Under the pieces are notes generated by a model. It did not search any database, was not told the origin of the DNA, and was given only the letters and a program-made list of their open reading frames with translations. Positions 4,021-23,213 of a DNA stretch of 23,543 bases are shown here, piece after piece. Made by a program: the position numbers and the translations under genes. Position 1 is the stretch's first letter. Every line of letters starts with the position of its first letter. Source of the stretch: Nannocystales bacterium (GTDB taxonomy: Bacteria > Myxococcota_A > Polyangia > Nannocystales > Nannocystaceae); NCBI GenBank assembly GCA_050633305.1, contig JBOEGF010000062.1, positions 1 to 23,543 on the forward strand, given 5' to 3'.

Positions 4021-4053
4021 CCGATTGACAGTCGGTTTTTTGCCCCCCATGCT
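4021..4053 (+). promoter_or_regulatory. Sigma70 promoter with overlapping palindromic operator
   Basis: TTGACA (4025-4030), 17 bp, CATGCT (4048-4053); imperfect palindrome CCGATTG-A-CAGTCGG (4021-4035) covers the -35. Confidence 0.75.
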
Positions 4054-4080
4054 TCCGCGGCAATGCCATCGCGCGCCGAC

Positions 4081-4488
4081 ATGCGTTCGACTCCCTGGGG
4101 TCTCCTGGGCGAGCTCGAGCTCGCTGTCCTTGAGTGTCTTTGGGACTCGGGCGGTGCGGATGCCAAAGAGGTCCACGGCAAGCTCGGGCAAACGCGCGGC
4201 ATAACGTTGAACACCGTGCAGTCGGCGATGAAGCGATTGCACGAGAAGGCCTTGCTCCGGCGAACCAAAGTCAGCCACGCTTTCGTCTACGAGCCGGCGC
4301 TGACCAAAGAAGACTTCCAGCGTGACGCGGTGGGAGAGGTTGTCGAAGCCCTCTTGCATGGTGAGGCCGATGCGATGGTTGCCGCATTCGTCGATGTTGC
4401 GGAGCGTGCAGGCGGTGACACCCTCGCGCAGCTCGAGCGTCTGATCGCCGACCGACGTCGCGCCAACGCCGATACGGGGGCGAAATGA
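4081..4488 (+). CDS. BlaI/MecI/CopY family transcriptional repressor
   Basis: LGELELAVLECLW, TVQSAMKRLHEKALLRR, HAFVYEP; alternative start ATG 4063; no CopY-type C-terminal Cys motif. Confidence 0.92.
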   Translation: MRSTPWGLLGELELAVLECLWDSGGADAKEVHGKLGQTRGITLNTVQSAMKRLHEKALLRRTKVSHAFVYEPALTKEDFQRDAVGEVVEALLHGEADAMVAAFVDVAERAGGDTLAQLERLIADRRRANADTGAK

Positions 4489-5465
4489 ACGTCCTTGTGG
4501 TCGCCCTGCTCGCGGCCATCTCGTTCACGGCGCTCACCGCTGCCGCGACAGCCCTGGCCTACCCACACGCACGTTCGTGGATCGGCCGACTCTCCGGCGA
4601 ACGCAGGAGTGCGATCCTGCTCGGCGTCCTCGCGACCCCCTTCGTTGCGGGCATCCTGCTCACCGCGCTCGCGCTCCTGCCGGGACTCGTGGGCATCGCG
4701 TGGCCGGGACTGGACCACTGCACGGGCCACGACGACCATCATTTTCATCTGTGCCTGGTTCACACCCCAGGCCTCGCAGGCCTTGGTTCGTTCACCGCGT
4801 TCATCTGCGCGGCGTTCGTTCCCGCTGGCGTTCGATTGGGCGCCACGGCCGTTCGCGTCCACCGGGCGCGCCGCTTGGTCGGCATCCTCGACACCAACGC
4901 GACGCTCGACGCCGGCGGGTCCCATGCGGTAGTGGAGTCGGAGCTCCCCTTTGCGCTGACCGCGGGGCTCCTTGCGCCGCGGGTGTTCGTGACCTCGGCG
5001 CTGCTTCGCGACCTCGACTCGACTTCGATTGCAGCCATGCTCGCGCACGAGGCTGCGCACGTGCGTCGGCGAGACCCGCTGCGAAAACTTCTCGGCGACA
5101 TGCTCTCCGCGTTTCACCTCCCGGGAGCCCGCTCGACGCTGCTGGCGGACCTCTCCTTGGCCTGCGAAGAATCTTGCGACGAAAGTGCCGCCGCGCAGAT
5201 CGGCGACCGCGCGGACGTTGCGGCTGCCCTCGTGGCGTTGGGGCGCTTGATCGAACGAACACCGGAGCGCCCCGCGCTGGTGGGCGCAGCGTTTGGAGAT
5301 TCGGACATCGAAACCCGCGTTCGCTCGTTGCTCAGCGCACCGAAGATCGACCCGCGCATTCCGAGTCGCGGAGTGTGGATCGCCGGGGCCACCCTGGTCG
5401 CGGCTCTGGTGGTCGTTCCGGTGCATCACATCACCGAATCACTTCTCGGTTCCGTACTCGGATAG
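4485..5465 (+). CDS. M56 (BlaR1-like) membrane metallopeptidase with a His/Cys-rich loop and no penicillin-binding domain
   Basis: TM helices, TAGLLAPRVFV, HEAAHVRRRD zinc motif, ACEESCD; loop DHCTGHDDHHFHLCLVH; ATGA overlap with the repressor gene. Confidence 0.9.
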   Translation: MNVLVVALLAAISFTALTAAATALAYPHARSWIGRLSGERRSAILLGVLATPFVAGILLTALALLPGLVGIAWPGLDHCTGHDDHHFHLCLVHTPGLAGLGSFTAFICAAFVPAGVRLGATAVRVHRARRLVGILDTNATLDAGGSHAVVESELPFALTAGLLAPRVFVTSALLRDLDSTSIAAMLAHEAAHVRRRDPLRKLLGDMLSAFHLPGARSTLLADLSLACEESCDESAAAQIGDRADVAAALVALGRLIERTPERPALVGAAFGDSDIETRVRSLLSAPKIDPRIPSRGVWIAGATLVAALVVVPVHHITESLLGSVLG

Positions 5466-5475
5466 CAAGACGCCC

Positions 5476-6771
5476 ATGGCACCCGGACAACGAAGCCCAC
5501 TCTCAAAACCGATTGTCAGTCGGTGTATCTCCCTCGCCCTGGCTGGGTGCTTGGGCTCCAGCACGGCGAGCGCCGCCGCCGACCCGCGGGCACTGACCGA
5601 GACTGAGGCCTTGGAGCGAGCGTTGACCAACCCCTCCCTCGCCGAGCTTCGCGCAGGATGGGTAGGGGCCGCCAAGGCGGATGGTCTCGATCGGGCGGCC
5701 TGGCAGAATCCGTCGCTTTCGTACACCCGCGAGCAACTCATCGGCAGCACCGTCTTGGGCGAGGACTACCTCACCCTCTCGCAGCAGTTCGATCTCTCGG
5801 GCCGCAGGTCTCTGGCTCGTCAGGCCGCGGCGCAGCGCGAGGGCGCAGCCGGGCACTCGGCGGACGCCGTCCTGCTGGAGTTCAAGGCGGAGGTTCGACG
5901 ACGATTCTATCGGTTGCTCCACGCTCAGCGACGTCAGGCCTCGCTTTCCGCCTGGCACGGGCGAGTCGGGCAGCGCCTCGAGGCTGTGGTCGCGCGCGAG
6001 GCGGCTGGGGACGCGGCGGCGTATGACCGGGTCCGCCTCGAGCAAGAGCTGACGGCCATCGAGGCACGCATGGCAAAGGAGGGAGCGGGGAAGGCGAAGG
6101 CGTGGGCGCTGCTCCGTGCGTTGGTGGACGGTGCCTCCCCCGAAGAGCGTGGCGGATGGTCGCGGGCCGAACCGCGCCTCACCGGCGAGCTTCTGCCGTC
6201 GCGGTCCGGTCTGGCCAAGCAGGACGCGGTGGATCAGCTCACCGACCTGCCCAGCGCCAAGGCACGCGAAGCGGAAGCACGGGCACTGAGGCTGGACGCG
6301 CGAGGGTCGTCACGATGGTGGGTTCCCAACCCCAGCGTCGGTGCTGGCTACAAGGGGGTCGACCTTGGCGGCGGGGCTCGGGCAAACGGGTTCGTATTCA
6401 CACTGAGCATTCCGTTGCCCGCGTTCGACCGCCGACGAGGAGACAGGACTCGAGCGGTCGCGCAGTCCCAATCTCTGGGTGCCCAGACGAACTTGGCCGC
6501 AGCCGAGGCGCGCGGACAAGCGGCGGGGCTGTGGGAGGAGCTGAACCACCTTAGCGCCGCCGCGCAAACCCTGGCGCAAGACGGGGGACGACAATCCGAA
6601 GCCCTGCTCGCTGCCGTAGAGGCCGGTTACCTGGGCGGCGAGATCGGCGTCATGGAACTCCTGGACGCCTACCGAAGCGCAACGAGTACCGACCTCATGG
6701 TCCTCGACCTCGCCATGGACGCTCGCCGGGCCGAGATCGATCTTTCCCGACTCACGGAGACCGCAACGTGA
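5476..6771 (+). CDS. czcC: TolC/CzcC family outer membrane efflux protein
   Basis: Signal peptide, NPSLSY, LSIPLPAFDR, YLGGEIGVMELLDAYR motifs; start taken at ATG 5476 because the longer ORF overlaps the M56 gene. Confidence 0.88.
   Translation: MAPGQRSPLSKPIVSRCISLALAGCLGSSTASAAADPRALTETEALERALTNPSLAELRAGWVGAAKADGLDRAAWQNPSLSYTREQLIGSTVLGEDYLTLSQQFDLSGRRSLARQAAAQREGAAGHSADAVLLEFKAEVRRRFYRLLHAQRRQASLSAWHGRVGQRLEAVVAREAAGDAAAYDRVRLEQELTAIEARMAKEGAGKAKAWALLRALVDGASPEERGGWSRAEPRLTGELLPSRSGLAKQDAVDQLTDLPSAKAREAEARALRLDARGSSRWWVPNPSVGAGYKGVDLGGGARANGFVFTLSIPLPAFDRRRGDRTRAVAQSQSLGAQTNLAAAEARGQAAGLWEELNHLSAAAQTLAQDGGRQSEALLAAVEAGYLGGEIGVMELLDAYRSATSTDLMVLDLAMDARRAEIDLSRLTETAT
5509..5523. promoter_or_regulatory. 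Second copy of the putative BlaI-type operator
   Basis: CCGATTGTCAGTCGG, 14/15 identical to 4021-4035. Confidence 0.6.
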
Positions 6772-8330
6772 AGTTCATCCACCGACCGACCCTCGTGCTC
6801 GCGGGAGTCCTTTCCGCCTGCTCACTTTTCCATCCCGATGATCACGCGCACGATGCCGAGGGGGAACACGCCGCCCCGGGCGACAAACGAGATGCGGTCG
6901 CGTCCACGACCTGGACCGAGAACACGGAGCTGTTCGTCGAGTTCCCGGTCCTGGTGGTCGGGCACGAATCGCCCTTCGCCGCCCACTTCACTTGGCTCGA
7001 AGGTTTCGGGCCGGTCGCCACCGGCCAAGTCTCGGTGGTGTTGTCCGGTGGGGGCGGGGCGGAGGAGACATTCTCCTCCGAACCCAGCAGCACTCCTGGA
7101 ATCTTCCGACCCGTGGTCTCCCCTTCGCACGCTGGCGAGCGCCAAGTGCTCGTCGTGCTGGAGTCCGCGGGAAAACGCGAAGAGCATTCGCTCGGGACCA
7201 TCCGCGTCCTGGTGGCGCTCCCCGATGCGCCGCCATCGGAGCCGGAGGACGACGGTTCGATCAGCTTCCTCAAAGAGCAGCAGTGGAAGATGCGCTTCTC
7301 CACCGCCGTCGTGCGTACCGGGAGCATGAGGCCTTCGTTCTCGGCGTTTGGAACCGCCGGGCCCCGAGCTGATGGTGACGTCGTCGTCGGCGCTCCGGCC
7401 ACCGGTCGCCTCGTGACCGCGAAGGGTCCGCTGCCCGTCGTGGGCAGTACGGTCGACAGCGGTGGAGTCCTGGCGCGCCTGATTCCGCGCCTCGAGGGCA
7501 CGGCGGACGTCGCCTCCCTCGACCTCGCCGGGGCGGCGGCCCGCCTGGATGTTGAGCAGGCGGTCCGCGAGCGCGAGCGCCTCGAAGGTTTGCTCGCGAG
7601 CGGCGTCGTCCCGGAGCGCCGGGTCGCCGAGGCTAGGCACGCCGAAGCCGCGGCGCGAGCTCAACTCAAGGCGGCGAACCGGCGCACGGGGCAGTATCGA
7701 AGGGTGCAGCGCGCGGGGGGCAAGGGCGCGCAGGGCATCGAGGTCCGCACGCCCCTGGCCGGGTCGGTGCTCGAGATTCATGCGGTGGCAGGCGCGTTCG
7801 TGGAGGACGGCGCCCCTTTGTTCCGCGTCGTCGACCCCAAGACGCTGTGGCTCTCGGCACGGGTCCCCGAGATCGACGTGCCGCAGATCTCAGCCATCGA
7901 CGGCGCCTGGTTCGACGTGCCCGGAGCGGAGCGACGGGTCGAAGTTGGGGCCGACGCTCTCGTCACCCGAGGAGGTGTGGTGGACCCGGTCACGCGCACG
8001 GTCGACGTCGTGTTTGCCATCCCGAACCCAGACGGACTCCTTCGGGTCGGAGCCGCGGTCCAGGTCCATCTGACGATCGGTCAGAGCACGGACGCGCTGT
8101 CGGTCTCGGAGGAGTCCATCATCATCGATTCGGGGCTGGCATACGTGTTCGTCCAAGCGGGCGGAGAGAGCTTCGAGCGGCGACAAGTTCGCACCGGGAT
8201 TCGAGATCGCGGCCGGGTGCAGATCATCGAAGGTGTGACCGCCGGCGAGCGTGTCGTGGGTGACGGCGCCTACGCGGTCAAGCTGGCATCGGCGTCCACC
8301 GCTCCCCCAGCCCACGGACACGCGCACTAG
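6768..8330 (+). CDS. czcB: RND efflux periplasmic adaptor (CzcB-like), lipoprotein
   Basis: Lipobox LSAC, His-rich N-terminus HPDDHAHD, APATGRL and TPLAGSV lipoyl halves, DPVTRTV, GERVVGDGAY, C-terminal HGHAH. Confidence 0.92.
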   Translation: MKFIHRPTLVLAGVLSACSLFHPDDHAHDAEGEHAAPGDKRDAVASTTWTENTELFVEFPVLVVGHESPFAAHFTWLEGFGPVATGQVSVVLSGGGGAEETFSSEPSSTPGIFRPVVSPSHAGERQVLVVLESAGKREEHSLGTIRVLVALPDAPPSEPEDDGSISFLKEQQWKMRFSTAVVRTGSMRPSFSAFGTAGPRADGDVVVGAPATGRLVTAKGPLPVVGSTVDSGGVLARLIPRLEGTADVASLDLAGAAARLDVEQAVRERERLEGLLASGVVPERRVAEARHAEAAARAQLKAANRRTGQYRRVQRAGGKGAQGIEVRTPLAGSVLEIHAVAGAFVEDGAPLFRVVDPKTLWLSARVPEIDVPQISAIDGAWFDVPGAERRVEVGADALVTRGGVVDPVTRTVDVVFAIPNPDGLLRVGAAVQVHLTIGQSTDALSVSEESIIIDSGLAYVFVQAGGESFERRQVRTGIRDRGRVQIIEGVTAGERVVGDGAYAVKLASASTAPPAHGHAH

Positions 8331-8338
8331 GACTCCAG

Positions 8339-11300
8339 ATGATCGACTCTATCATTCGCTGGTCCCTACAAAATCGCCTCGTCGTGCTCACGGCGGCGGT
8401 CATCCTCTTGGTGTGGGGCGCGGTCGAGACGACCCGCACGCCGGTCGACGTCTTCCCCGACCTCACCGCGCCCACGGTCACGGTGATCACCGAGGCGCAT
8501 GGCATGGCGCCCGAGGAGGTCGAGACCCTGGTGACGTTCCCCATCGAGACCGCGCTCAACGGTGCCGCGGGTGTCCGCCGGATTCGGTCCTCGACCGCCG
8601 CCGGCATCGCGCTGGTCTGGGTGGAGTTCGAGTGGGACACCGACATCTTTCGCGCCCGCCAGACGGTTGCCGAAAAGCTCCAGTTGGTTGCGTCCACGCT
8701 TCCATCCGAGGTCGAGCCCCCGGTGCTTGCGCCCGTTACCTCGATCATGGGCGAGATCATGTTCGTCGCGGTGCAGTCCGAGGCGCACAGCCCGATGGAC
8801 GTGCGCACACTGGTCGACTGGACGATTCGTCCTCGGCTACTCGCGGTTCCGGGCGTCTCCCAAGTGGTGCCCATCGGCGGAGCCCGCAAGACGCTGCAAG
8901 TCGCCGTGAACCCGGAGAATGCCCTGCAGCGCGGGATTGCGCTTTCCGATGTCATCGAGGCGACCCGATCCGGGAACCAAAATGCCGCCGCAGGGTTCTT
9001 AGTGGAGGGGCCACAGGAGAATGTCGTGCGGGGGATCGGACGGGCGCAGACCCCTGAAGACCTCGCGCAGACGATGGTCGAATCCGCCGACGGCTACCCG
9101 ATCGCAGTGCGTGAGGTCAGCCAGGTCAGCTGGGCTGCGGGCGTCAAGCGCGGCGATGGGTCGTTTGGCGCTTCGCCGGCGGTCGTCATCGGCATTCAAA
9201 AACAACCGTCGGCCAACACTCTCGAACTCACCGGTCGCATCGACACCGTCCTCGACGACCTGGAAGCTTCTCTTCCCGACGGGATGACCCTGCAAAGGGA
9301 GGGGTTTCGGCAGGCGAGCTTCATCGGCAGAGCTGTCGATAATGTGTCGGCCGCGCTGCGAGATGGGGCGATCCTTGTCGTCATGATCGTGCTGGTGTTC
9401 CTGGCCAGCGGCCGCGCGACCATCGTTACGGCGCTGGCGATCCCCCTGTCGTTGCTCTGCACGGTTCTGTCGCTGCAGTTTATCGGCGCGAGCATCAACA
9501 CGATGACGCTCGGCGGCATGGCGATTGCCGTGGGTGCGCTCGTGGATGACGCGATCATCGACACCGAGAACGTCGTCCGCCGGCTGCGGGAGAACGCCGC
9601 CCTTGCTGCGGAAGAACAGCGCGCCGCGATCACGGTCGTCTTCGAGGCGAGCCGAGAGATTCGGACTTCGATCGTCTTCGCCACGCTGGTCATCGGACTG
9701 GTGTTCGTGCCGGTGTTCTTCCTCGAAGGGGTCGAAGGGCGGCTCTTGGCGCCCTTGGGCTTTGCGTACATCGTGTCGCTGTTCGCATCGCTGGTCGTCG
9801 CGCTCACGGTCACACCCGTGCTTTGCCTGATCCTTCTGCCCGGGTCTCGGGTCGTCCGCCGCACCACGACCCCAGCCGCCACCCGGATCCTGCAGACGAT
9901 GTACGCGCCCGTGCTCGCGCTGACGCTGTCGCGGTGGAGACCCATCAGCGCCGCATGTCTGGCCCTGCTGGGTGGGTCGGTCGTCGTTCTCGGCATGTCG
10001 GGACGAGCGTTCCTGCCGGAGTTCAACGAGGGCGCCCTGACCATCAGCGTGGTCACCATTCCGGGCACCTCGCTCGAGCAGTCCAACGCCCTGGGCACCT
10101 GGGTCGAGGAGATTCTGATGGAGCAGCCGGAGGTCGCGTCCACGACCCGCCGAACGGGTCGGGCCGAGCTCGACGAGCATGCGCAGGGAGTCAACGCCGC
10201 CGAGATCGATGTCCGGCTCACCCAAGAAAGCTCCAGCGACGGGCGAACGCGCGCGGCGTTCTCCGAGGCGCTGCGAGCCGAGTTCGCCCTGATCCCCGGG
10301 ACGGCGGTCATCATCGGTCAGCCGATCTCACACCGCATCGATCACATGCTCTCGGGGACCCGGGCGAACGTGGCGGTCAAGATCTTCGGGCCCGACCTTC
10401 AGGAATTGCGTCGCCTCGCCGAGCGAGCCCGGGCGTCCATGGAGGGCATCGATGGGGTCGTCGATCTCACCATCGAGCAGCAGTCCGAGGTCCCCACGAT
10501 ACTCGCGCGCTTCGACCGGGCGGCCCTCGCTCGTTATGGCCTGACGATCCAGCAGGCGTCCGAAACGATGGAAGCGGGCGTTCGTGGTCTCTCGGTGTCG
10601 CGGGTCCTCGAAGGGAACATCAGCTTTGACGTTGTCGTGCGCCTGGACCCGGCCCCGTCCGACTTCGAGTCGCTGGGTGACCTGTTGATCACATCGCCCA
10701 GCGGAGCACGGGTGCCCCTACGGGCTATCGCGCAGCTCAACCGCGATGTAGGACCGAGCACGATTTCGCGGGAAGACGTGGAGCGCAAGGCGGTCGTGTC
10801 ATGCAACGTCGCGGGCCGGGCGTTGGGCAGCGTGGTGCAAGACATCCGTGCCGCCGTAGGCACGGAGGTCCCCCCGCCGGACGGCTATCGCATCGAGTAC
10901 GGCGGGCAGTTTCAGAGCGCCGAGGAGGCGTCGCGCATCCTCCTTCTGGTCGGGGCCGGGGTGATTTTGGGTATCCTCGTCCTGCTCGTGGCCGCGCTGC
11001 GTTCCACGCGCGACGCCCTGCTGGTGATGCTCAACCTTCCGCTCGCGCTCATCGGCGGCGTGCTCGGCGTGTTCCTGTCCGGGGGCGTCCTCTCGGTCGC
11101 GTCGATGATCGGCTTCATCACCCTGTTTGGCATCGCAACGAGAAACGGCATCATGCTCGTCTCCCACTTCGGGCACCTCGTCGAGCAGGAGGGGGTGACG
11201 GATCGGAAGGAGGCGGTCTTGCGTGGATCCGTCGAGCGCCTCGCCCCGATCCTGATGACGGCGATCGCCACCGCCCTGGGGTTGGTGCCCCTCATGTTGG

Positions 11301-11461
11301 CGGCTGGCGACCCGGGGAGCGAGATCCAGGCGCCAATGGCGGTCGTGATCCTGTCCGGCCTGGCCACCTCGACCGCCTTGAACATGCTCGTCGTCCCCGC
11401 GTTGTATCTTCGTTTCGGACGCTACCGACTTCACCGCAGGACTTCCGATGCACGAACATGA
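8339..11461 (+). CDS. czcA: CusA/CzcA family heavy-metal RND permease
   Basis: 1040 aa; VDVFPDL, PEEVETLVTFPIE, TM4 GGMAIAVGALVDDAIIDTEN, FLPEFNEG, GIATRNGI, ERLAPILMTA. Confidence 0.96.
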   Translation: MIDSIIRWSLQNRLVVLTAAVILLVWGAVETTRTPVDVFPDLTAPTVTVITEAHGMAPEEVETLVTFPIETALNGAAGVRRIRSSTAAGIALVWVEFEWDTDIFRARQTVAEKLQLVASTLPSEVEPPVLAPVTSIMGEIMFVAVQSEAHSPMDVRTLVDWTIRPRLLAVPGVSQVVPIGGARKTLQVAVNPENALQRGIALSDVIEATRSGNQNAAAGFLVEGPQENVVRGIGRAQTPEDLAQTMVESADGYPIAVREVSQVSWAAGVKRGDGSFGASPAVVIGIQKQPSANTLELTGRIDTVLDDLEASLPDGMTLQREGFRQASFIGRAVDNVSAALRDGAILVVMIVLVFLASGRATIVTALAIPLSLLCTVLSLQFIGASINTMTLGGMAIAVGALVDDAIIDTENVVRRLRENAALAAEEQRAAITVVFEASREIRTSIVFATLVIGLVFVPVFFLEGVEGRLLAPLGFAYIVSLFASLVVALTVTPVLCLILLPGSRVVRRTTTPAATRILQTMYAPVLALTLSRWRPISAACLALLGGSVVVLGMSGRAFLPEFNEGALTISVVTIPGTSLEQSNALGTWVEEILMEQPEVASTTRRTGRAELDEHAQGVNAAEIDVRLTQESSSDGRTRAAFSEALRAEFALIPGTAVIIGQPISHRIDHMLSGTRANVAVKIFGPDLQELRRLAERARASMEGIDGVVDLTIEQQSEVPTILARFDRAALARYGLTIQQASETMEAGVRGLSVSRVLEGNISFDVVVRLDPAPSDFESLGDLLITSPSGARVPLRAIAQLNRDVGPSTISREDVERKAVVSCNVAGRALGSVVQDIRAAVGTEVPPPDGYRIEYGGQFQSAEEASRILLLVGAGVILGILVLLVAALRSTRDALLVMLNLPLALIGGVLGVFLSGGVLSVASMIGFITLFGIATRNGIMLVSHFGHLVEQEGVTDRKEAVLRGSVERLAPILMTAIATALGLVPLMLAAGDPGSEIQAPMAVVILSGLATSTALNMLVVPALYLRFGRYRLHRRTSDART

Positions 11462-12389
11462 GATCGAACGCTTTGAGCACCGTCACTCCTTCGTCAGCGA
11501 TCGGCACACCGGCGCGGAGCGGCGGACTCGCTGGGTCGTCGGCCTGACGCTGGTCATGATGGTGGCGGAGATCTCCGGCGGCATGTTCTTCGGATCGATG
11601 TCACTGCTCGCGGATGGATGGCACATGGGAAGCCATGCCGCCGCGCTCGGGGTGGCCGCCTTTGCCTACTGGTTCGCACGCCGCCATGCCGCGAACCCGA
11701 GGTACAGCTTCGGGACGGGGAAAGTCGGTGCTCTCGGTGGTTTCGCGAGCGCAGTGGGGTTGGTCCTGGTCGCGCTCCTGATGGTTGGCGAGAGTGCGTG
11801 GAGGTTGGCGACGCCGGTATCGATCATGTTCGACCAGGCCATCGCGGTCGCGGGCGTGGGCTTGGTCGTCAACCTCGCGAGTGCGTTCATCCTTCGAGAT
11901 GACCACGACCACAACCACGGACATAGCCACGACCACGATGCTCATCGCGATCACAACCTTCGCGCCGCATACCTGCACGTTCTGGCGGACGCGCTCACTT
12001 CTGTTCTCGCGATCGTGGCTCTCATCGCGGGTAAACTCTACGGCCTGACGTGGATGGACCCGATGATGGGCATCGTCGGTGCCCTGGTGATCTGCAGGTG
12101 GTCTTACGGACTCCTACGCGACACGAGCGGCGTTCTGCTCGATGCCGAGGCTGGAGACGCCCGCCGGGCCGCGATCCAGCGCAAGATCGAAGCTGACGCC
12201 GACAACCGGGTCGCCGACCTCCACATCTGGCGTGTGGGGCCCGAACATCTGGCCGGTATCGTCGCCGTCGTCACGCACGATCCGAAGCCGCCGGAACACT
12301 ACAAGCGCCTGCTGGAAGGGGAGTCAGACCTCGTGCACCTGACGGTTGAGGTTCTCTCGTGCCCGGGCGACTCACCGAAGGCAGCCTAA
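11448..12389 (+). CDS. dmeF: CDF family Co/Ni efflux transporter, DmeF-like
   Basis: SMSLLADGWHMGSH, FGTGK, His-rich loop HDHNHGHSHDHDAH, DHNLRAAYLHVLADALTS, DLHIW. Confidence 0.9.
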   Translation: MHEHEIERFEHRHSFVSDRHTGAERRTRWVVGLTLVMMVAEISGGMFFGSMSLLADGWHMGSHAAALGVAAFAYWFARRHAANPRYSFGTGKVGALGGFASAVGLVLVALLMVGESAWRLATPVSIMFDQAIAVAGVGLVVNLASAFILRDDHDHNHGHSHDHDAHRDHNLRAAYLHVLADALTSVLAIVALIAGKLYGLTWMDPMMGIVGALVICRWSYGLLRDTSGVLLDAEAGDARRAAIQRKIEADADNRVADLHIWRVGPEHLAGIVAVVTHDPKPPEHYKRLLEGESDLVHLTVEVLSCPGDSPKAA

Positions 12390-12958: not shown

Positions 12959-13508
12959 TCACTTGTTCGCCCCGCATTTGCCCTCTCCCCCGCACTTAGC
13001 CTCGGCGCCACACTTCATTTCTCCCCGGTCATCCTTGTGCTTGGTGGCTGCCGCTTTCTTCGGAGCCGTGTCTGTTGGCGCTTTCGCAGGCACCGCGGGG
13101 GGCTCTTTCGGAGCCACGACCTCTGTGACCGCGCGCGCCTGGTCTGGGGAAACGGACGGGGTACGCTTCGAGCGGCGACGCTTCTTGGCCGCCTTCGGCG
13201 GCGGCGACGGCACCACAGCAGGCTCGCTCGCCGCTGCAGCGACACCGCCTTCGAGCGGATCCACGTTCGCCCGGTCGGCGATCGGCACAGCAGGCACGTC
13301 CGGCTCTGCGGATGCTCCGCACTTGCCGGCCCCGCACTTCCCTTCGCCGCACTTTCCCTTCGCCGCAGCTTGCCTCACCGGCGTCAGCAGCCGGAAGAAC
13401 CTCTTGAGCTGGTGTCGAAATCTCGGGGGCGGCTGGGCTATCGCACGCGACCAGGGCTGCTCCTGTCCCGAGGGCGGAGAGGATTTTGTAGATTGTTTTG
13501 GCGTCCAT
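12959..13508 (-). pseudogene. Frameshifted lipoprotein with seven xxxCG repeats (EGKCG type, HvfA-like); 182 aa if repaired
   Basis: Lipobox LVAC; one extra A at 13353-13355 (GGGAAAG versus GGGAAG in the adjacent 15-bp repeat) joins two ORF-track frames: EASCGEGKCGEGKCGAGKCG...EMKCGAEAKCGGEGKCGANK. Confidence 0.8.
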
Positions 13509-13515
13509 GAATCCC

Positions 13516-14949
13516 TCAAGTCGCGCAGCAGCTGAGCTTGGAGACGTCTTTTCCGAACGTGATTGCGGCGAGCTTGATTCCTTCGGAGAGCGTCAAGTAC
13601 GGGTGCAGCAGTTCGCGCAATTCGGCGATCGTCAGCTGGCCGCGGATTGCGACTGCCAACTCCATGAGTAGCTCGGATCCCTCTGGGGCGAGGATCCGAG
13701 CCCCCAGCAGTCGGTCCGTTTTTCGGTCCCGGATGAGCTTGATGAAGCCGCGAGTGTCGCGGGCCGCGAGGGCGCGTGGAACGTAGCTCATGGGCAACGT
13801 CGCAGCTTCGGCGTCGAACCCCGCCGCGCTCGCCTGCCGTTCGTCCATCCCGATTCCTGCCACCTGCGGGTCGGTAAACACGACCCATGGCGTGGGTTGA
13901 CCGCTGCGAAGGAGGGACGCGTCGGAGAGCGCATTTCTAGCCGCCCGTGCCCCATCGGCAGCTGCGGTGTGCACAAACATCTCGCCGCCCGCCACGTCGC
14001 CTGCAGCCCAGACTCCCGGTGCCGTGGCCTGCAGGTGCTTGTTGACCCGGATGAAACCACGGTCGTCTGTCTTGACGCCGGCGGCGTCCAGCCCAAGTGC
14101 ATCTGTATTGGGCACGCGCCCTGTGGCCAGCACAATGTGCTCCGCGCGGAACGTGACGCGCTCGCCATCACGTTGGCCGTGCAGCACCGCCTCGCCGGAC
14201 TCGCGCTCCACCGATTCGATTTGGACGTGGTTCTCGACCGCCACCCCCTCCTCGACCAGAAACGTCGCGAGCCCGTCGCCGATGTCTGGAAGTTCGCGCG
14301 ACAACAGCCGGCTGCGCGTGACGATGGTGACCTTCGTGCCGAAGCGGGCGAACATCTGCGCGACCTCCAGCGCGATGTAACCTCCGCCGACAACGAGCAT
14401 CGAGGTGGGAAGCGCCTCGAGTTCGAACGCACTCTCGTTGTCGAGATACCCGACCTCGCCCAGCCCTGCGATTGGCAGCGAGGCCGGCCGGGCCCCGGTC
14501 GCGATGATGATCTTGTCTGCGAGCAATCGGCGCCCATCAACCTCGACCTCGGTCGCGCTCACCAGACGAGCTCGGCCGTCGATGCGGGTGAACCGCGGGA
14601 GATCGGCGACCACGTCGACATACTTGGCTTGCCGGAGTTCCTCCACCAACGCTCGCTTCTGCGCGATGACCTGCTTGAAGTCCGAAACACGCCCCGAGGT
14701 TTCCACCCCGGCGAACGAATGTCGCTGCGCGCGATGAACCACATCCGCCGCACGGATGAGTGTTTTCGAGGGCACACAGCCGACGTTGACGCAGGTTCCA
14801 CCGATCGGCAGACCGTCGTTGATCATCGTGACGCGCGCACCCAACTCGGAGGCCGTGATCGCAGCGGAGAAGGCGGCCGATCCTCCACCAACGATCACGA
14901 CGTGTGGGGGAGCGGAAGGGACAACCGACATGTTCTTTTTCGTGCTCAT
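13516..14949 (-). CDS. merA: Mercuric reductase without N-terminal NmerA domain
   Basis: GGGSAAF, GGTCVNVGCVPSK, LRQAKY, HPYLT and C-terminal LSCCA. Confidence 0.96.
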   Translation of the reverse strand: MSTKKNMSVVPSAPPHVVIVGGGSAAFSAAITASELGARVTMINDGLPIGGTCVNVGCVPSKTLIRAADVVHRAQRHSFAGVETSGRVSDFKQVIAQKRALVEELRQAKYVDVVADLPRFTRIDGRARLVSATEVEVDGRRLLADKIIIATGARPASLPIAGLGEVGYLDNESAFELEALPTSMLVVGGGYIALEVAQMFARFGTKVTIVTRSRLLSRELPDIGDGLATFLVEEGVAVENHVQIESVERESGEAVLHGQRDGERVTFRAEHIVLATGRVPNTDALGLDAAGVKTDDRGFIRVNKHLQATAPGVWAAGDVAGGEMFVHTAAADGARAARNALSDASLLRSGQPTPWVVFTDPQVAGIGMDERQASAAGFDAEAATLPMSYVPRALAARDTRGFIKLIRDRKTDRLLGARILAPEGSELLMELAVAIRGQLTIAELRELLHPYLTLSEGIKLAAITFGKDVSKLSCCAT

Positions 14950-14984: not shown

Positions 14985-15650
14985 TCAGGAGTTGACGGCC
15001 GCCGACGGATAGCCGATGTCGGTCGTGGCCTTGGTGAGGTCGTCAACCTGCACCTTGGCGGGGTCGAACTCGACCACCGCCTGCGGCGGATTGCTCGTCA
15101 CGTCGATCACCTTCACGCCGTCGAGGGCTGCAAGCGCCTTGCGAACGTTGTGGGGGCATGCCGCGCAGGTCATGTTCTCGATCGAGAGCACGACACGCTC
15201 GCGGTCTTGTGCGACGGGGGCGGCTGCGAGTGCCTGGGCGGTGGCAGCACTGCCTGCGGGCTCGCTGTTTGACCCGTCTGCCCACCCAACGATGCTCGGC
15301 ACCATCAAGAGTCCACCGACCAGCAGCGCGACGCCCCACAGGGCAGCCTTGTTGACCCGGTCGGTGCGTGGGTCCGCGCAAAGGCTGCCCGGCACACACG
15401 CCTCCGGCTCCGAGGATTTGGCGTAGACGCGAGAGAAGGCGAACCCGAGGAAGCCACCCGTCGCGAGCGTGAGCAGGGGTTTGATCGGCTCGAGGAACGT
15501 CAGGCTGCTCATCCAGGCACCCGACGCGCCCAGAGCGATCAAGACAAGTGGCCCCACGCAGCAGATCGACGCCGCCACAGCAGCGCCAATGGCCGCGCCA
15601 AGAGTTCGGCGAGAACTGACCTTCGATTGGATTGGGTTCGTACTTGACAT
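14985..15650 (-). CDS. merT: MerT-MerP fusion mercury transporter
   Basis: ASICCVGPL, GAW, LEP and ACVPGSLCA (MerT), followed by HMA domain NMTCAACPHNVRKAL...GYP; alternative start GTG 15656. Confidence 0.92.
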   Translation of the reverse strand: MSSTNPIQSKVSSRRTLGAAIGAAVAASICCVGPLVLIALGASGAWMSSLTFLEPIKPLLTLATGGFLGFAFSRVYAKSSEPEACVPGSLCADPRTDRVNKAALWGVALLVGGLLMVPSIVGWADGSNSEPAGSAATAQALAAAPVAQDRERVVLSIENMTCAACPHNVRKALAALDGVKVIDVTSNPPQAVVEFDPAKVQVDDLTKATTDIGYPSAAVNS

Positions 15651-15692: not shown

Positions 15693-16121
15693 CTATTGAA
15701 CGACCGTACTCAACTCCGGAGTCGGGTCGAGTGCTTCGATCAGTGGGCAGGCATGCGGGGACAGAGACCCGCAAGAGCGAACCAGCCCTCTAGAGCTTTA
15801 CGCATCGCACACAGGTCCAAAAACTCTGGCTTCGACTTCTGCGTTCTTCGCCTTCGCTCGGCTCCGCATCCGCCCGCACTATGCCTCGCTGCGGCTGCCT
15901 CGCAACGCGAGCATCTCCTCGACGTCGTCAAGAGAAGAACCCAACTGCTGGGCCCGCGTGATGAAGCGGATGCGGCGCAGCACTTCCTCACCGTAGCGGC
16001 GCCAACCCGAAGTCGGAGATTCAGGCTGTCGGATGAGACCTCTCCGCTCGTAGAATCGGATGGTCTCGACGTTGACGCCCGCCTCAACGGCCAGCCGACC
16101 AATAGTTCGTCCTTCGGACAT
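15693..16121 (-). pseudogene. merR: Second merR copy, inactivated
   Basis: GVNVETIRFYERRGL HTH; TAG at 15879-15881, then two frameshifts; the remainder still reads CGRMR...SCGSLSPHACPLIEAL. Confidence 0.85.
15695..15725 (-). promoter_or_regulatory. Degenerate MerR-type promoter/operator upstream of merTP
   Basis: CCGACT-CCGGAGTTGAGTACGGTCG(19)-TTCAAT; weak -35; overlaps the 3' end of the merR pseudogene. Confidence 0.5.
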
Positions 16122-16141
16122 GTGCAGCCTCCCTGGTCATC

Positions 16142-16173
16142 AGCGTAAGCTCCGGACACGGGTACGGAGTCAA
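16142..16173 (-). promoter_or_regulatory. MerR-type promoter/operator
   Basis: TTGACT-CCGTACCCGTGTCCGG...-TACGCT with 19-20 bp spacer, similar to Tn501 TTGACT-CCGTACATGAGTACGG. Confidence 0.8.
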
Positions 16174-16314
16174 GCGCGGTCTGCCGGCTGCATCCAAGAG
16201 CCCGCTATGCGGATCTATGGGCGGCACCTTGGTGCCCGGTGCCGTACGTGAGAACGGCGACGCTCTGTCACCTGCGGCCCGCTGCCTGTTCGGCTCCGCG
16301 GAGGGCAGCGCTGT

Positions 16315-16737
16315 TCACGAGCGAGTGTCGAGCGCATCGAGGATCGGGCATGGGCGGCCGGTCCCATCTTCAGGACAAGAGCCCGCAAGATCCGCCAGCA
16401 CGTCTCTCACCGCCATCAGGTCGCGGACCTTGTCATCGATCTCCGCGATCTTGTCCCCAGCCTTCTTGCTCACCCGTTTGCACGTCGCTGGACTCGCGGA
16501 CCCACGGAGCCCAAGCAGCTCCTTAACCTCCGCCAGGGTGAAACCGAGCTGCTGGGAGCGCTTGATGAACCGTATGCGACGCAGCGCGGTCTCGTCGTAT
16601 CGCCGCCAGCCTTGCAGAGGCTTGCGCGGCTGCCTGAGCATTCCAATGCGCTCGTAGTACCGGATCGTTTCCACGTTCACCCCCGCATCCTGGGCGAGCC
16701 CGCTGATCGTCCAGGTTTCCTGCTCCAGGTCGGCCAC
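16315..16737 (-). CDS. merR: Hg(II)-responsive regulator MerR
   Basis: GVNVETIRYYER, RFIKRSQQLGFTLAEV, three Cys (TCKRV, SCPEDGTGRPCPIL) at the Hg-binding positions. Confidence 0.92.
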   Translation of the reverse strand: MADLEQETWTISGLAQDAGVNVETIRYYERIGMLRQPRKPLQGWRRYDETALRRIRFIKRSQQLGFTLAEVKELLGLRGSASPATCKRVSKKAGDKIAEIDDKVRDLMAVRDVLADLAGSCPEDGTGRPCPILDALDTRS

Positions 16738-16739
16738 TA

Positions 16740-16755
16740 CCGTATCTTAGTACGG
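16740..16755. promoter_or_regulatory. MerR operator next to the merR start (autoregulation)
   Basis: CCGTA-TCTTAG-TACGG, 2 bp from the GTG start. Confidence 0.7.
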
Positions 16756-16834
16756 AACTCGTACCTGCGCACTGGCGGACGGAACCTGGACGGCGGCCGT
16801 TGGATGGGCGGCACGAGGAGGTAACGAAACAGCC

Positions 16835-16865
16835 TTGAATCCGGACCCTGGTACGGAGCTATCCT
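16835..16865 (+). promoter_or_regulatory. MerR-type promoter/operator for the Fe-S gene-merB unit
   Basis: TTGAAT-CCGGACCCTGGTACGGAGC(19)-TATCCT. Confidence 0.85.
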
Positions 16866-16871
16866 GAGCGC

Positions 16872-17330
16872 ATGGAAGCACCGGTCACGACCTGCCCTGC
16901 ATGTGGATCGCGCGGACGTCGCGTCGCGGACGCCACTGTAGAAAATCTGGTGAAAGGTGACCATGCAGCCGCGCTTGCCGGTCGTGCGTTGTTCTGTTCG
17001 AGCGGAACGTGCGAGGTCGTCTACTTCGAGCCTGGCGGCGTCGTGGTCCCGAAAGCAGATGTTCGCGTGCCGGTGTTCCAGAAAGAGACCGACCCTGCGC
17101 GTCCGGTCTGCTACTGCTTCGATCATTCGGTGGAGGACGTCGTGGCCGCCAAACGCGCCGATGGGAGCAACGCGATCGTCGAGTCGATCACCGCCGCGTG
17201 TCGAGCCGGCCTCGACCGCTGCGAGGAAACGAGCCCTCAGGGCCGTTGCTGTCTCGGCAACGTACGGGCCGTCGCAAAGGCTCCCCCACAGGCCAAAACA
17301 TCCCCCTCGTGCTGCGGAGACAGCCCGTGA
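16872..17330 (+). CDS. Cys-rich Zn/[2Fe-2S] metallochaperone-like protein (Archaeoglobus CopZ N-terminal domain type)
   Basis: CPACG, FCSSGTCEVVYF, VCYCF, CEETSPQGRCC, C-terminal SCC. Confidence 0.85.
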   Translation: MEAPVTTCPACGSRGRRVADATVENLVKGDHAAALAGRALFCSSGTCEVVYFEPGGVVVPKADVRVPVFQKETDPARPVCYCFDHSVEDVVAAKRADGSNAIVESITAACRAGLDRCEETSPQGRCCLGNVRAVAKAPPQAKTSPSCCGDSP

Positions 17331-18046
17331 AGACTGAGGATTCTCCACACAATGGCCGAGGTCTCACCGCGGAGGCTGATCGCTTCGAACACATCTCCCG
17401 TAGCCTGCTCGCCGCATCGACTTTTCTCGACGGCGCGCAGGCGGCCCTGACTCGGACCGTGTACAGGGCGCTCGTGCAGGGGGCTCCTGTCTCGATCGAT
17501 ACTGTCGCCGCAACGGCAGGGTTCTCCGCAGACAGGGCCGAGGAACTCTTGGCGCAGGGACCAGGGTTGACCCGCGATGACCGCGGAGCCATCGTGGGCT
17601 ACGGCGGCCTCACGTTGAGGGAAACGAAGCATCAGTTTCGAATCGATGGGAAGCGGCTCTACACCTGGTGTGCTCTGGACGCGTTGTTCTTGCCCGTCGT
17701 GATTGGGCGAGGGGCCGACGTAGTTTCCATCTCCCCGACGACTGGTGAAACGGTCCGGGTCCGCGTTGAGGCCGATGGAACATCAACTTCGGCCCTTGAA
17801 GGGGTCATGGTGTCCTTCGTGACCCCGCAGACCCCATTGGCCGCGGATGTCCGCGCGAGGTTCTGCTGCTTTGTCCACTTCTTCGAGTCCCGGGACGTCG
17901 CCGAGCAGTGGGCGACGACCCAGTCGGACATCGAGATCTTGTCGCTGAGTCGGGCGTCCGAACTCGGGCGGCGCTTGACGTACCGGATGTTCGGAGCCGC
18001 GCCGGAGCCCGTTGCGGACGCGGTCACCCCGTTTACAATCCGGTGA
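17327..18046 (+). CDS. merB: Organomercurial lyase
   Basis: GLTLRETKH, LYTWCALD, FCCFVHFF; GTG start overlaps the upstream stop (GTGA). Confidence 0.9.
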   Translation: MKTEDSPHNGRGLTAEADRFEHISRSLLAASTFLDGAQAALTRTVYRALVQGAPVSIDTVAATAGFSADRAEELLAQGPGLTRDDRGAIVGYGGLTLRETKHQFRIDGKRLYTWCALDALFLPVVIGRGADVVSISPTTGETVRVRVEADGTSTSALEGVMVSFVTPQTPLAADVRARFCCFVHFFESRDVAEQWATTQSDIEILSLSRASELGRRLTYRMFGAAPEPVADAVTPFTIR

Positions 18047-18073
18047 CCGGGCCCGATTTCGTTTGGATCCGCG

Positions 18074-18946
18074 TCAGTCAGACGCGACGGACCTGATCGC
18101 CGCCTCGAGCTTCACTTCATCACCCGCTTCGTAGTTGCGGTGGCTGAAGACGACGGCGCCGGTGCTGTCGAGGACGAACGTGAGGGGGATGCTGGCTCCC
18201 TTCGCGTGTTGTGCGAGGACCTCGCCATCAGGATCGAGCGCGATGCCGTAGGTGACACCGCGGTCTTTCGCGACCTTCCGCAATGCAGGGTGGTCCTCCG
18301 ACGCGTCGATGCTCACGCTGATGAACTCGACCCCCTTGGGGCCATAGGTCTCGTGCAGCTTCACCAAATGAGGCGCCTCCTCCAAGCACGGGGCGCACCA
18401 ACTCGCCCAGAAGACGACGACCGCGGCTCGCTTGCCGAGGACCTGACCGAAGTCGTAGGTCTCGCCCGACAGGAGCGGGAGGACAAACGGCTTCCCGCGT
18501 GTTGCAAGCTCAGTGGCTTTGGTTGGCTCAAAGTCCCACTGGATCTTGTAGTCCTCACCCCGGGTCTTCCCGTGGGCCAGGATCGCGGCCTCGAGTTCCG
18601 GCCGTGCGACCTGGGCGCCGCCGTTCAGATGAGCGTTGAACACCCCGGTGTCGGGGTCGAAGTCGACCTTGTTGATTGCTTGCAGCCCTTCCAGGGCTCG
18701 CTTGACCCCGTTGGGTCAACCCATTCACAACGCGCCGTTGATCCGCCTCATCCCGTCGATCGTGAACTGAAAGTCCTCCTCGTAGACCTTCTGCGCCCCA
18801 GCATCACCGGCTGGCTCAGCTCTCGCGACGACGTCGCCGGCCTCCCGCGGAGAGGAGCTGTCTGCCGGCGCGGGGGCCGAGCCAGAGCGACAAGCGCTCA
18901 GGCTCGCGGCGAGGAAGAGGACCGTTCGCAGTGGGCGGATTGCCAT
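18074..18946 (-). CDS. Putative double-selenocysteine lipoprotein: HMA-like domain (UMGU) fused to a TlpA/thioredoxin domain (WCAPC), 290 aa
   Basis: One frame from ATG 18946, lipobox LSAC; in-frame TGA at 18727-18725 and 18718-18716 in FTIDGMRRINGAL-U-MG-U-PNGVKRALEGLQAINKVDFD; continues into FWASWCAPC and SIPLTF. Confidence 0.8.
18682..18719 (-). promoter_or_regulatory. Two hairpins after the UGA codons, candidate bacterial SECIS
   Basis: mRNA UUGACCC-AACG-GGGUCAA (18719-18702) and AGCCCU-GGA-AGGGCU (18698-18684); the GGA loop is 23 nt after the second UGA and 32 nt after the first. Confidence 0.55.
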
Positions 18947-18953
18947 GTCATCG

Positions 18954-18984
18954 AGTATCGCACCGTACCGTAGTACGGAATCAA
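18954..18984 (-). promoter_or_regulatory. MerR-type promoter/operator for the UxxU gene
   Basis: TTGATT-CCGTACTACGGTACGGTGC(19)-GATACT, perfect CCGTAC-N4-GTACGG dyad. Confidence 0.88.
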
Positions 18985-19515: not shown

Positions 19516-19553
19516 GGGGTGCCCGGCCGGATCGTGAATTTTAGTACGCTCAC
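19516..19553 (+). mobile_element. Tn3-family-like 38-bp terminal inverted repeat
   Basis: GGGGTGCCCGGCCGGATCGTGAATTTTAGTACGCTCAC: GGGG start, AT-rich core, ACGCT near position 33. Confidence 0.6.
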
Positions 19554-19658
19554 GATCGGGTGCTCAGGCGTCTCGAACCCGCACAAGGCGACGGTTGAGG
19601 ACGCCCTGGCCGTACCCGCCTCTTGCGCACCGGGCCCGTGCGCGCGAAGGTGAGGAGC

Positions 19659-20524
19659 ATGCGAAAGGAGATGCTGATCGCGCTGGGTGTTCTGGCGCCG
19701 CAAATCGCATCCGCATCCAACGGCGCCGGTCAACGCACGCCTCCGATCTACCCGCTTGCCGCGTGCATCGCGGAGGTGGATCGAAGCGTGGACCCGGTGT
19801 TCCACCTCGACATCGGGTTACCACGCGAAGACTTCATGGTGAGCGACGACGAGCCCGAGGACTCGCGGCGCCTGCAGTTTTTCCTCGTGTGCGAGGACAT
19901 CCCCGCCGAGCTTCAAGACCTTCCCAACTGGGTCACCGTGGCCGAAGCCGAGGACGCTCTCGCCCGCGGCAGCATCGAAGCGATACCGCCCGACGAGGAC
20001 ATCCTTGAGCGGCGTGACGACCTGCAGGGCTGCGTGTTCCCGATGAACACGTCCGCGCAACGCATCCCGATCACCTGCAATGCGACGCAGGCCGGGCTCG
20101 ACTTCGATACCAGCAACGTCCCGGTGGGCAACTACGTCGTGCGCGGATACACCTATGAGCCGCCGCTCAACCTCTGGAGCGAGCGACGCGGCGTGGTCCG
20201 GGTCTCGGACGATGTCGACGGTGCACCGGCGACGGTCGGTCTGCGCACACCATCCCTCGACGGCGTGCAGCTCCGGCCGGGATCACCGTTTCCGATTCGT
20301 GGTTGTGCAGCTGGAACCTCCGACGTCGTCTTGCAGTGGGCATCGCTCATCAACCTCGGCGGCGACGACGACGACGCCGCCTGGCAGACCTTAGCCACGG
20401 TCACCCGAGCCGGCTCCTTCGAGATCGATTTCGACCCGCCTCTGGACGCCGTCGGTCAGCCGCTGTTGATCCGCGGCGTCGCCGGTCCACAAAGCACCGT
20501 CCCGTGGATCGACCATGCGGAAGG
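19659..20524 (+). pseudogene. Secreted acidic hypothetical protein, 3' truncated by a mini-IS3 (ORF runs on to 20645)
   Basis: GAGGAG RBS, signal peptide MRKEMLIALGVLAPQIASA; composition changes abruptly at the IS end. Confidence 0.7.
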
Positions 20525-21610: not shown

Positions 21611-21788
21611 GACTTATGCGCAAAGTAAACCCCGCTAACCTCCTGAAGTCACGTGACTGGCGACGGCCTGAAGGATGAGGGCCGGGCACGTGGGCGATCG
21701 CCGCGTCGCTTCCAGAGCGATGGACGGCCGTTCAGAGCGAGGGCTCGGACGCTCGGTAAGATTATGCGCGAAGTGGTCCCCCTCGTTG

Positions 21789-23030
21789 TCACAGCTCGAA
21801 GCGGTACATCCCCTGGGCGTTGACGTGTCCGAACCGCATCGGGGAGATGTGCCCGAGCAGCTCCAGCGGTAGCGACTCCCCGGGTTTCGACGCTGTAGAT
21901 CAGTTCGGTGAAGGAGGCGTGCTGCTTGCTGCCATCGAGGTAGAGGTCTCCGCTTCGGAGGCCGTCGCGGATTGCGACGGCAAGGCTTGTCTCCCAGAGA
22001 CTCCGGTTGACGACGCGGCCTTTCACAACGAGCCCAGCTCTCCACTTCTTCGGGACGAAGTCGAACGGAGCGTCGCGAGGGAGCCTGCCGATGCTGCCGT
22101 TGTCGAGAGCCCGAACGAGCTCGATCGCCTTGATGATGCTCTCTGACCCGGGCTCGGCGCGGAGAGGAAGCCCCATCACCCGCGGCAAGAATCTGCGAAG
22201 GGGGCCGTATGCTGCGCACAGCTCGTCGCGGAGACCGTGCCGTGCCGCCTTCTGCCCGCGCTCGGCATGCTCGACGACGCTGAGGAACTCCTGAGCCCCG
22301 CTGTCACCCCCAAGGGAGGTTTCCCATGCCGCTCCGAGCGTCACGTCAGCATCGGGATCAAGCCCGCGCTCAATGGCTGCACGCACCTTTTGTAGAACCT
22401 TCGAGGTTGCATCGTTGCTCTGCTGCCATCGCAGCATCTTGCTGTCGTGGTGCCGTCTCTTTGCCCGCTGCCACATGAGGGTGATGTAGTGGTCGGTCAT
22501 CACCACGGACTCGTCGAGGAGGCGACTGCGAGCGGTCAGCAAGTACGCCACGACCAGCGCATACCGCCTCGACGGCCTCAGTCGCCGAAGCTCCCAGGCG
22601 TTGTATCGCTTCGTCTGCTCCGCCTGCTCGGCGAGGCGTGCTGGCGTTGCCAGGGCGGGTAACGCTACGGACGACAAGTCGAGCAGCTCGACCTGTTCGA
22701 GGCGATCGAGCTGCTCCAAGATGTTCACCGCCTTGGCGCTCTTGGCCGAGCGGTGCAGCGCCGAGAGGACCGACGTCCCCTCGGTCACATCCAGCACGCG
22801 CTGGTCGATCACCTCGCGAACTTTCTCTGGAAGCGCGTCGGCGATTTCCTCCAGCAGGGATGACTCTGCCTGGGCGTGGGCGGAGGCCACGAGTTTGTCG
22901 AGCACCGTCTGACCTGCCCGCACGAGCTCGCGCCTCTGAAGCCACGCCCGCGCGCAGGCATGCAACCCGTCCCGAGAGCTTCCGCCATGAGCCAGGCGCA
23001 GGAGCTCCGCACTGAGAGCAGAGGCGTCAG
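21789..23030 (-). pseudogene. tnpA: Tn3-family transposase, internally deleted
   Basis: N-terminal part (LDKLVASA, RRYALVVAYL, LRRFLP, WETSL...LRSGDLYLDGSKQH) joined near 21883 to the C-terminal tail GHISPMRFGHVNAQGMYRFEL* in another frame; DDE region missing. Confidence 0.85.
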
Positions 23031-23138
23031 ACTCCGGCGGGCTCGAATGAGCCGCTTGATGTCCGCTCGCTGGTTGTCCAGCGTCTGCTCCTCGGTGCTG
23101 ACCCGCAGGTAGACCGCTGTTCGCTTCTTGGCCGCCAT
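23031..23138 (-). pseudogene. Serine recombinase (resolvase) N-terminal fragment
   Basis: MAAKKRTAVYLRVSTEEQTLDNQ, the catalytic Y-x-R-V-S motif; similarity lost after about 35 codons. Confidence 0.85.
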
Positions 23139-23213
23139 TGCCGTGGGCGTACAACGTGGAGGCTGCGTCGGTTGCGCTGTGAGCGGTTTTTACACGGATA
23201 TGGTTCCTACCCG

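Follow-up and report, generated by a model that had tools for sequence, protein, structure and literature searches.

In mercury resistance (mer) systems, apo-MerR bound to a dyad in an over-long promoter spacer represses transcription, and the binding of Hg(II) realigns the −35 and −10 elements; MerT and MerP import Hg(II), MerA reduces it, and MerB cleaves organomercurials. Selenoproteins are usually regarded as victims of mercury. Here we describe the mer region of a 23,543-nucleotide stretch of DNA (the window), which is the entire contig JBOEGF010000062.1 (C62) of the Nannocystales bacterium GCA_050633305.1, a member of the phylum Myxococcota_A with a genome of 11.0 Mb and 66% GC. The region is a mercury-resistance island in which three MerR-type promoters probably let Hg(II)-bound MerR jointly induce merTP-merA, zf-CopZ-merB and the gene of a predicted lipoprotein with two selenocysteines (di-Sec). 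The new element would be this lipoprotein itself, predicted from sequence to be di-Sec, MerP-like and MerR-controlled and to carry a fused reductase domain; the arrangement is also predicted in two other families.

The locus resembles the Tn21/Tn501 mer systems in its dyad, its 19–20 bp spacers, its three-Cys MerR and its merT, merP and merA genes, and the first-pass annotation of this stretch had assigned it to that architecture. The assignment did not hold, however, as the layout is mainly promoter, merR and structural genes in one orientation, which is usual in this phylum. No single operator is shared by divergent promoters; merR2 is co-oriented with the structural genes, and between the divergent merR1 and zf-CopZ-merB lie two distinct boxes, the putative operator of merR1 being 85 bp from the activated promoter. 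In addition, merT and merP form a single fused gene, the N-terminal HMA domain is missing from MerA, and merD was not seen among the scanned window proteins. According to PMC3466566, merR is co-oriented in 52 and present in multiple copies in 5 of 272 operons. The broad-spectrum mer module TnMERI1 of Bacillus megaterium is similar in its co-oriented merR, its extra merB and its several operator/promoter regions, reported to be three in the title of a reference of PMC4551924, so that multi-operator mer modules already have precedent and the five-box count of the present locus becomes less important. The Bacillus MerR2 lacks the Hg cysteines, whereas the extra MerRs here retain them. We know of no selenoprotein, zf-CopZ or TlpA member in TnMERI1. 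For Pseudomonas pseudoalcaligenes CECT 5344, a MerR2 regulon has been predicted in which boxes are likewise proposed before non-mer genes, including that of the dithiol oxidoreductase dsbA, but its motif is looser, its targets are scattered, and it includes no selenoprotein, the string 'selen' not occurring in the main text (PMC10433974).

The UxxU selenoprotein family NF041115 and the MerT/CopZ selenoprotein family NF045683 share with the lipoprotein an HMA-type domain, selenocysteine (Sec, U) in place of metal-binding Cys and a suspected heavy-metal role (PMC13188914/NCBIfam), whereas the protein here has a longer loop before UxxU, a lipobox and a fused TlpA domain. UxxU HMA and MerT selenoproteins have already been catalogued, and bacterial heavy-metal selenoproteins have been predicted with their roles stated as open (PMC13188914). 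The term 'MerR' does not occur in that review or in the passages covered of the Haft and Gwadz preprint and of Zhang and Gladyshev 2007, and no published MerR control of a selenoprotein was found in the literature, supplements being outside the search.

The first-pass annotation had listed five CCG(T/G)A-N6-T(A/C)CGG dyads, at 15704–15719 (box 1), 16152–16167 (box 2), 16740–16755 (box 3), 16841–16856 (box 4) and 18963–18978 (box 5), and all of them are present at these positions, against 0.13 expected in the window; none of 100 shuffled sequences reached five, and the genome-wide background is 66 dyads in 11.0 Mb, or about 0.14 per window. Its further claim that four of the dyads lie in promoters with 19–20 bp spacers stood for three (boxes 2, 4 and 5), boxes 1 and 3 having no such promoter. 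A rule-based scan (TTG −35, 19–20 bp spacer containing the dyad and xAxxxT −10, with at least 9 of 12 consensus bases) returned 28 sites in the host, and the four that reached 11–12 were boxes 2, 4 and 5 and one site on contig C63. With a matrix built from 17 promoters of other genomes, the same four host sites scored 32–35 bits and the next site 17.6 bits, a ranking that is partly circular because the training set was selected by a pattern derived from the host boxes, which takes some weight from the reading proposed here.

Promoter P2 (box 2; 16142–16173, minus strand; TTGACT-20-TACGCT; 34.3 bits, genome rank 2) heads merR2, the merT-merP fusion, merA and the gene of an xKCG-repeat lipoprotein. 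P4 (box 4; 16835–16865, plus strand; TTGAAT-19-TATCCT; 34.1 bits, rank 3) heads zf-CopZ-merB, with the start codon 6 nt past the −10, and P5 (box 5; 18954–18984, minus strand; TTGATT-19-GATACT; 32.4 bits in total, rank 4) heads the selenoprotein gene, with its ATG 7 nt past the −10 and the best dyad of the genome (21.6 bits). The three transcription units proposed earlier are thus each headed by a MerR-type promoter. A standard sigma-70 scan gave no promoters, which is uninformative here because the 19–20 bp spacers of MerR-type promoters exceed its allowed range of 16–18 bp.

Box 1, to which no strand is assigned, is a MerR-type dyad within the 3′ end of merR2 and ahead of merT-P. It has CCGACT at the −35 place where TTGACT would be expected, neither strand offers a −10 with A2 and T6 at a distance of 19 or 20 bp, and its score is under both reporting thresholds of the promoter matrix; it is probably a decayed promoter or a weak operator of merTP-merA. 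Box 3, also without assigned strand, ends 2 nt before the merR1 start and has a dyad score of 17.4 bits and a −35 score of −18.7, the −35 being absent on both strands. It covers a −10-like hexamer, TAAGAT (16749–16744), which lies 6 nt before the merR1 start, a spacing that matches P4 and the C63 promoter and belongs to the 6–8 nt found in 7 of the 17 training promoters, and box 3 is likely an autorepression operator on a leaderless merR1 promoter. A plus-strand promoter via box 1 (TTGAAC) or box 3 was ruled out, as neither has a valid −10, and one-mismatch dyads at 14047, 16242 and 18002 were dismissed, shuffled sequences averaging 3.87 such matches.

The host has two intact three-Cys MerRs and a merR pseudogene, and the proposal that one MerR controls all units was not sustained; the first-pass annotation had overlooked both the pseudogene and the intact copy on C63. 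MerR1 (merR1, 16315–16737, minus strand, likely leaderless) is an intact Hg-type MerR with an 8-residue metal loop and with C86, C121 and C130 aligned to C79, C114 and C123 of the Bacillus protein; three Hg-ligand Cys and an 8-residue loop between the last two have been linked to Hg selectivity (PMC4551924). Its best PDB matches are the Hg-MerRs 4ua1 and 5crl (93.7 and 89.5 bits), other metal sensors reaching at most 67.9 bits. The GTG start of merR1 reads ATG in runs X4 and X7, which supports the start position; results from these two runs are drawn from 40 of 332 difference rows against the window, and the X7 contig comes from a separate study and is about 96% alike at the merR2 stretch. In three-frame translation, merR2 (15693–16121, minus strand) is a pseudogene with an in-frame TAG (15879–15881) and compensating frameshifts near 15820 and 15786, neither indel being found in run X7, and it matches MerR1 at 50% by tblastn. 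The third merR, intact, with three Cys and its own promoter, lies on C63. Since their recognition helices are near-identical, MerR1 and the C63 MerR likely both read these promoters. The C63 operon (C63:23626–25502; L179:4626–6502), a second mer-type operon of the genome, consists of the MerR promoter, merR and three further genes, which encode a DF-family/MerC-like fusion, a thioredoxin-like protein of small size and a MerP-like protein with CRGW as its metal motif. The merR-DF/MerC-thioredoxin block is also found in G161, G353, G310, G447 and G130; the stretches covered there contain no merA.

The previously unannotated gene headed by P5 (18074–18946, minus strand) encodes a predicted dual-Sec lipoprotein of 290 residues, with a lipobox, an HMA-fold domain bearing U74-M-G-U77 (UxxU) and a TlpA/ResA domain with WCAPC, when the TGA codons (UGA at 18727–18725 and 18718–18716) are read as Sec. 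Two tandem hairpins resembling selenocysteine insertion sequences (SECIS), recognized by folding only, lie just 3′ of these codons (18684–18719, minus strand). Both UGA codons are kept in 8 of 8 other genomes, with near-identical nucleotides around them and hairpins behind them, in relatives whose proteins are 28–54% identical. The relatives come from 2 of 71 genomes of the order, 5 of 400 sampled phylum genomes (those with two TGA codons) and one named metagenome-assembled genome; the genome G468 is unpublished, and one context and one row of two alignments (profile searches, models) rest on it. The host carries tRNA-Sec together with selA, selB and selD, all over cut-off, and selA was present in all 5 of the UxxU-bearing relatives tested. 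The Sec positions align to Cys in the cysteine homologue P0147 and in HMA CxxC proteins. In AlphaFold 2 models (pLDDT 93.5 and 88.5), the UxxU domain folds as beta-alpha-beta-beta-alpha-beta, its metal pair preceding helix 1, and the Foldseek matches are ResA and HMA domains including MerP (1osd, 1afi).

The protein failed the NF041115 model (17.5–18.8 bits, cut-off 95). A whole-protein scan of genome contigs returned mostly generic TlpA matches, with the UxxU domain covered in 1 of 80 loci, and a metagenome scan gave one locus, which is near-identical to the window and so not independent. A profile search of 1.84 billion representatives yielded mostly multi-HMA proteins, and seven short matches were inspected. 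P0047 and P0050 have the same HMA loop with W at both Sec places, probably TGA under another code, and P0147 has CxxC; the UxxU family likely reaches beyond this phylum, judging from these sequences. All seven database relatives found consist of C-terminal fragments that lack the UxxU motif, and they show that mer-operon surveys miss members.

Among the eight relatives, the selenoprotein gene has a MerR promoter in two, mer-type genes with ArsR in three, a position after merT-P in one (G468, on a 2.3 kb contig) and no mer context in two. In G161, a MerR promoter, merR and the UxxU/TlpA gene form one operon, and merA lies on a separate contig; this operon converges on an arsR-gapdh-arsJ arsenate operon (L118:6108–8745). 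In G210, the first MerR promoter leads to merTP-merA and a second, right after merA, to the genes of a UxxC lipoprotein and a UxxU-HMA/thioredoxin lipoprotein. The first gene under that second promoter (L151:3742–4914) encodes a lipoprotein of 390 residues that contains a W-U-P-T-C motif, matches Pfam SelP_N and is predicted to be a second MerR-controlled selenoprotein. G340, G223 and G322, which belong to one family and are not independent, have UxxU with zf-CopZ and ArsR, merT/P in two of them and a merA-like gene in one, the order in G340 being merT-merP-zfCopZ-merA-like-UxxU. The G223 locus (L117:8912–11163) holds merT-P, zf-CopZ, UxxU-TlpA and arsR. In G103, a MerR promoter heads a MerT-HMA-thioredoxin fusion of the cysteine type, which makes the combination of an HMA metal site and a thiol reductase a unit that recurs. 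The proposed place of the UxxU-TlpA protein in the regulon is therefore upheld by its recurrence under MerR-type promoters or in mer-type operons of other phylum genomes.

The Fe-S protein, zf-CopZ (16872–17330, plus strand; PF18423), is a putative [2Fe-2S]-Zn metallochaperone of the cysteine form, with 103.8 bits against NF047645 (cut-off 100), a failed match to the seleno-form NF045877 (69.4 vs 190 bits) and an E value of 7e-15 to PDB 2hu9. Its membership, also proposed earlier, gains support from its recurrence under MerR-type promoters in two other genomes: as a zfCopZ-MerT-HMA fusion directly behind the promoter in G132, and in a promoter-led merR-merT-merP-zfCopZ operon in G196. These contexts tie zf-CopZ to the MerT path.

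The strict promoter-plus-dyad pattern occurs in 19 of 401 phylum genomes, with 26 sites versus 5 in a reversed control, and MerR-type promoters number four in G447 and two each in G310 and G210. Outside near-identical strains, the complete gene set was found in no locus examined. Fourteen of the 20 non-host sites examined head merR or a mer-type gene. Several observations weigh against a joint mercury regulon. The other six sites head no such gene, and in G363 the same dyad heads a copper-oxidase operon, with a regulator lacking the first Cys (one of 14), so that the presence of a box by itself neither points specifically to Hg nor demonstrates function. The best NCBIfam family of MerR1, TIGR02051, scores 136.1 bits, below its cut-off of 150.85, and the C63 MerR reaches 135.5 bits against the same cut-off. 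The accessory genes are rare in the 17 merA-like loci surveyed (UxxU 1, merB 1, zf-CopZ 0, xKCG 0). Three of the eight relatives pair the selenoprotein gene with ArsR, not MerR; no MerA over cut-off was found in G223, whose genome is a single contig; and G069 and G013, from the host's own family, have neither mer neighbours nor a MerR promoter at the selenoprotein gene.

The last two relatives would suit an explanation in which the core mer genes are Hg-regulated, P5 is an orphan that a rearrangement left behind, and the selenoprotein serves the envelope as a general redox or metal protein without a part in mercury defence. Orphan boxes are indeed known in G310 and G378, and genes for IS66 and Tn3 transposases lie on the contig along with two decayed genes. 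Nevertheless, we consider this explanation unlikely, given that P5 combines the best dyad of the genome with a start codon close behind the −10, and that MerR-promoter control of the selenoprotein gene recurs in G161 and G210, in two other families and with different gene orders.

It is slightly less probable still that the regulon mainly answers another soft metal (Cd, Zn, Cu or Au), which the HMA, zf-CopZ and UxxU proteins would handle. By its fold, the HMA domain resembles Cu/Zn/Cd chaperones no less than MerP, zf-CopZ is named after a copper chaperone, ArsR-linked versions lie near heavy-metal P-type ATPase or RND efflux genes, czcCBA-dmeF adjoin in the window, and the lack of a MerA over cut-off in G223 would fit as well. 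However, bona fide merA and merB are among the genes that these promoters head, MerR1 has the Cys triad and loop length of the Hg type, and no MerR-type promoter precedes the czc genes.

The core genes are as follows. MerA (13516–14949, minus strand) scores 521.5 bits against TIGR02053 (cut-off 454.45), lacks the N-terminal HMA domain as mentioned, and keeps the CVNVGC active site, HPYLT and the C-terminal CC, so that cut-off and signature tests were passed. The merT-merP fusion (14985–15650, minus strand) has Pfam MerT and HMA matches, its NCBIfam MerTP, MerT and MerP matches being below cut-off. The organomercurial lyase gene merB (17327–18046, plus strand) reaches 197.5 bits against NF009710 (cut-off 193), and in alignment to 1s6l its product keeps C96, D99 and C159 and has Ser, not Cys, at position 117; by the MerB signatures of PMC8261052, MerB without C117 is the '117alt' variant.

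Of the proposed regulon members, the xKCG gene (12959–13507, minus strand; Buf_EGKCG/oxazolin-like), which closes the merA unit, has the weakest case. It begins 8 nt past the merA stop and is thus placed for co-transcription, and it is frameshifted near 13353, its lipobox leader and KCG repeats lying in different frames. The frameshift is also present in the near-identical contig L099, and the one-base difference is not found in run X7. It scores 19.0 bits against NF050137 (cut-off 19.5), and the NF050188 match is also weak. Buf_EGKCG/oxazolin precursors and MerC-bufferin fusions likewise have a signal peptide and KCG repeats, and bufferin fusions in mercury clusters were already noted (PMC12452194), whereas the gene here is broken and has no adjacent MNIO/DUF2063 genes; the genome has seven MNIO matches, none of them on C62. 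No KCG repeat was found in the 17 merA-like loci or in the other mer loci examined, and the xKCG leader was matched in none of 71 genomes of the order. The place of the lipoprotein as a working member is therefore not supported.

The version given in the first-pass annotation, in which a single MerR and five working operators form one integrated system with a functional xKCG lipoprotein among its members, accordingly ranks as the least likely of the explanations weighed. Its five dyads do exist and cluster within 3.3 kb, and the absence of the xKCG frameshift in run X7 is in its favour, but the second intact MerR of the genome, the lack of promoters at boxes 1 and 3 and the state of the xKCG gene all stand against it.

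Domain and family scans identify C62 as a metal-resistance island, containing an IS66 transposase, BlaI/M56, czcCBA-dmeF, the mer region and a partial Tn3 transposase. The IS66 transposase (1–1506) and the partial Tn3-family transposase (21649–23154) are at opposite ends, which fits a mobile island. A BlaI/M56 regulator pair heads czcCBA and dmeF (3862–12389), where the promoter scan found no MerR-type promoter. Among six genomes of the same genus, which are 72–94% complete, none had MerA at E ≤ 1e-120 and none had the UxxU domain. The metagenome contig L099 (6267–7266; window 19525–20524) bridges C62 and C63 via a 1 kb multicopy gene, and if the bridge is real, the C63 merR would be about 6.8 kb from box 5; the join mismatches the gene copy of the window, so it may be an assembly chimera or a recombinant.

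Taken as a mercury island, the locus could operate as follows. MerR1 or the C63 MerR, once bound to Hg(II), would activate P2, P4 and P5 together, while MerR would repress merR1 at box 3. The UxxU-HMA domain may act as a membrane-anchored periplasmic analogue of MerP, holding Hg(II) between two selenolates, and the CxxC of the fused TlpA domain might keep the selenol pair reduced or unload it towards MerT, on whose cytoplasmic side zf-CopZ would move the metal. The island itself is probably a patchwork, each module having brought its own MerR promoter, with xKCG and merR2 decaying in this strain.

More tentatively, and as a possibility that we hold at well under even chances, the phylum may have a selenium arm of mercury defence, that is, a MerR- or ArsR-induced periplasmic di-selenol HMA protein with Se-Hg-Se capture and TlpA recycling, which in some lineages (G223) would work with MerT-P and zf-CopZ and without MerA. 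A predicted selenoprotein gene that three families of a single phylum place behind the promoter of a mercury sensor would make the role of heavy-metal selenoproteins directly testable.

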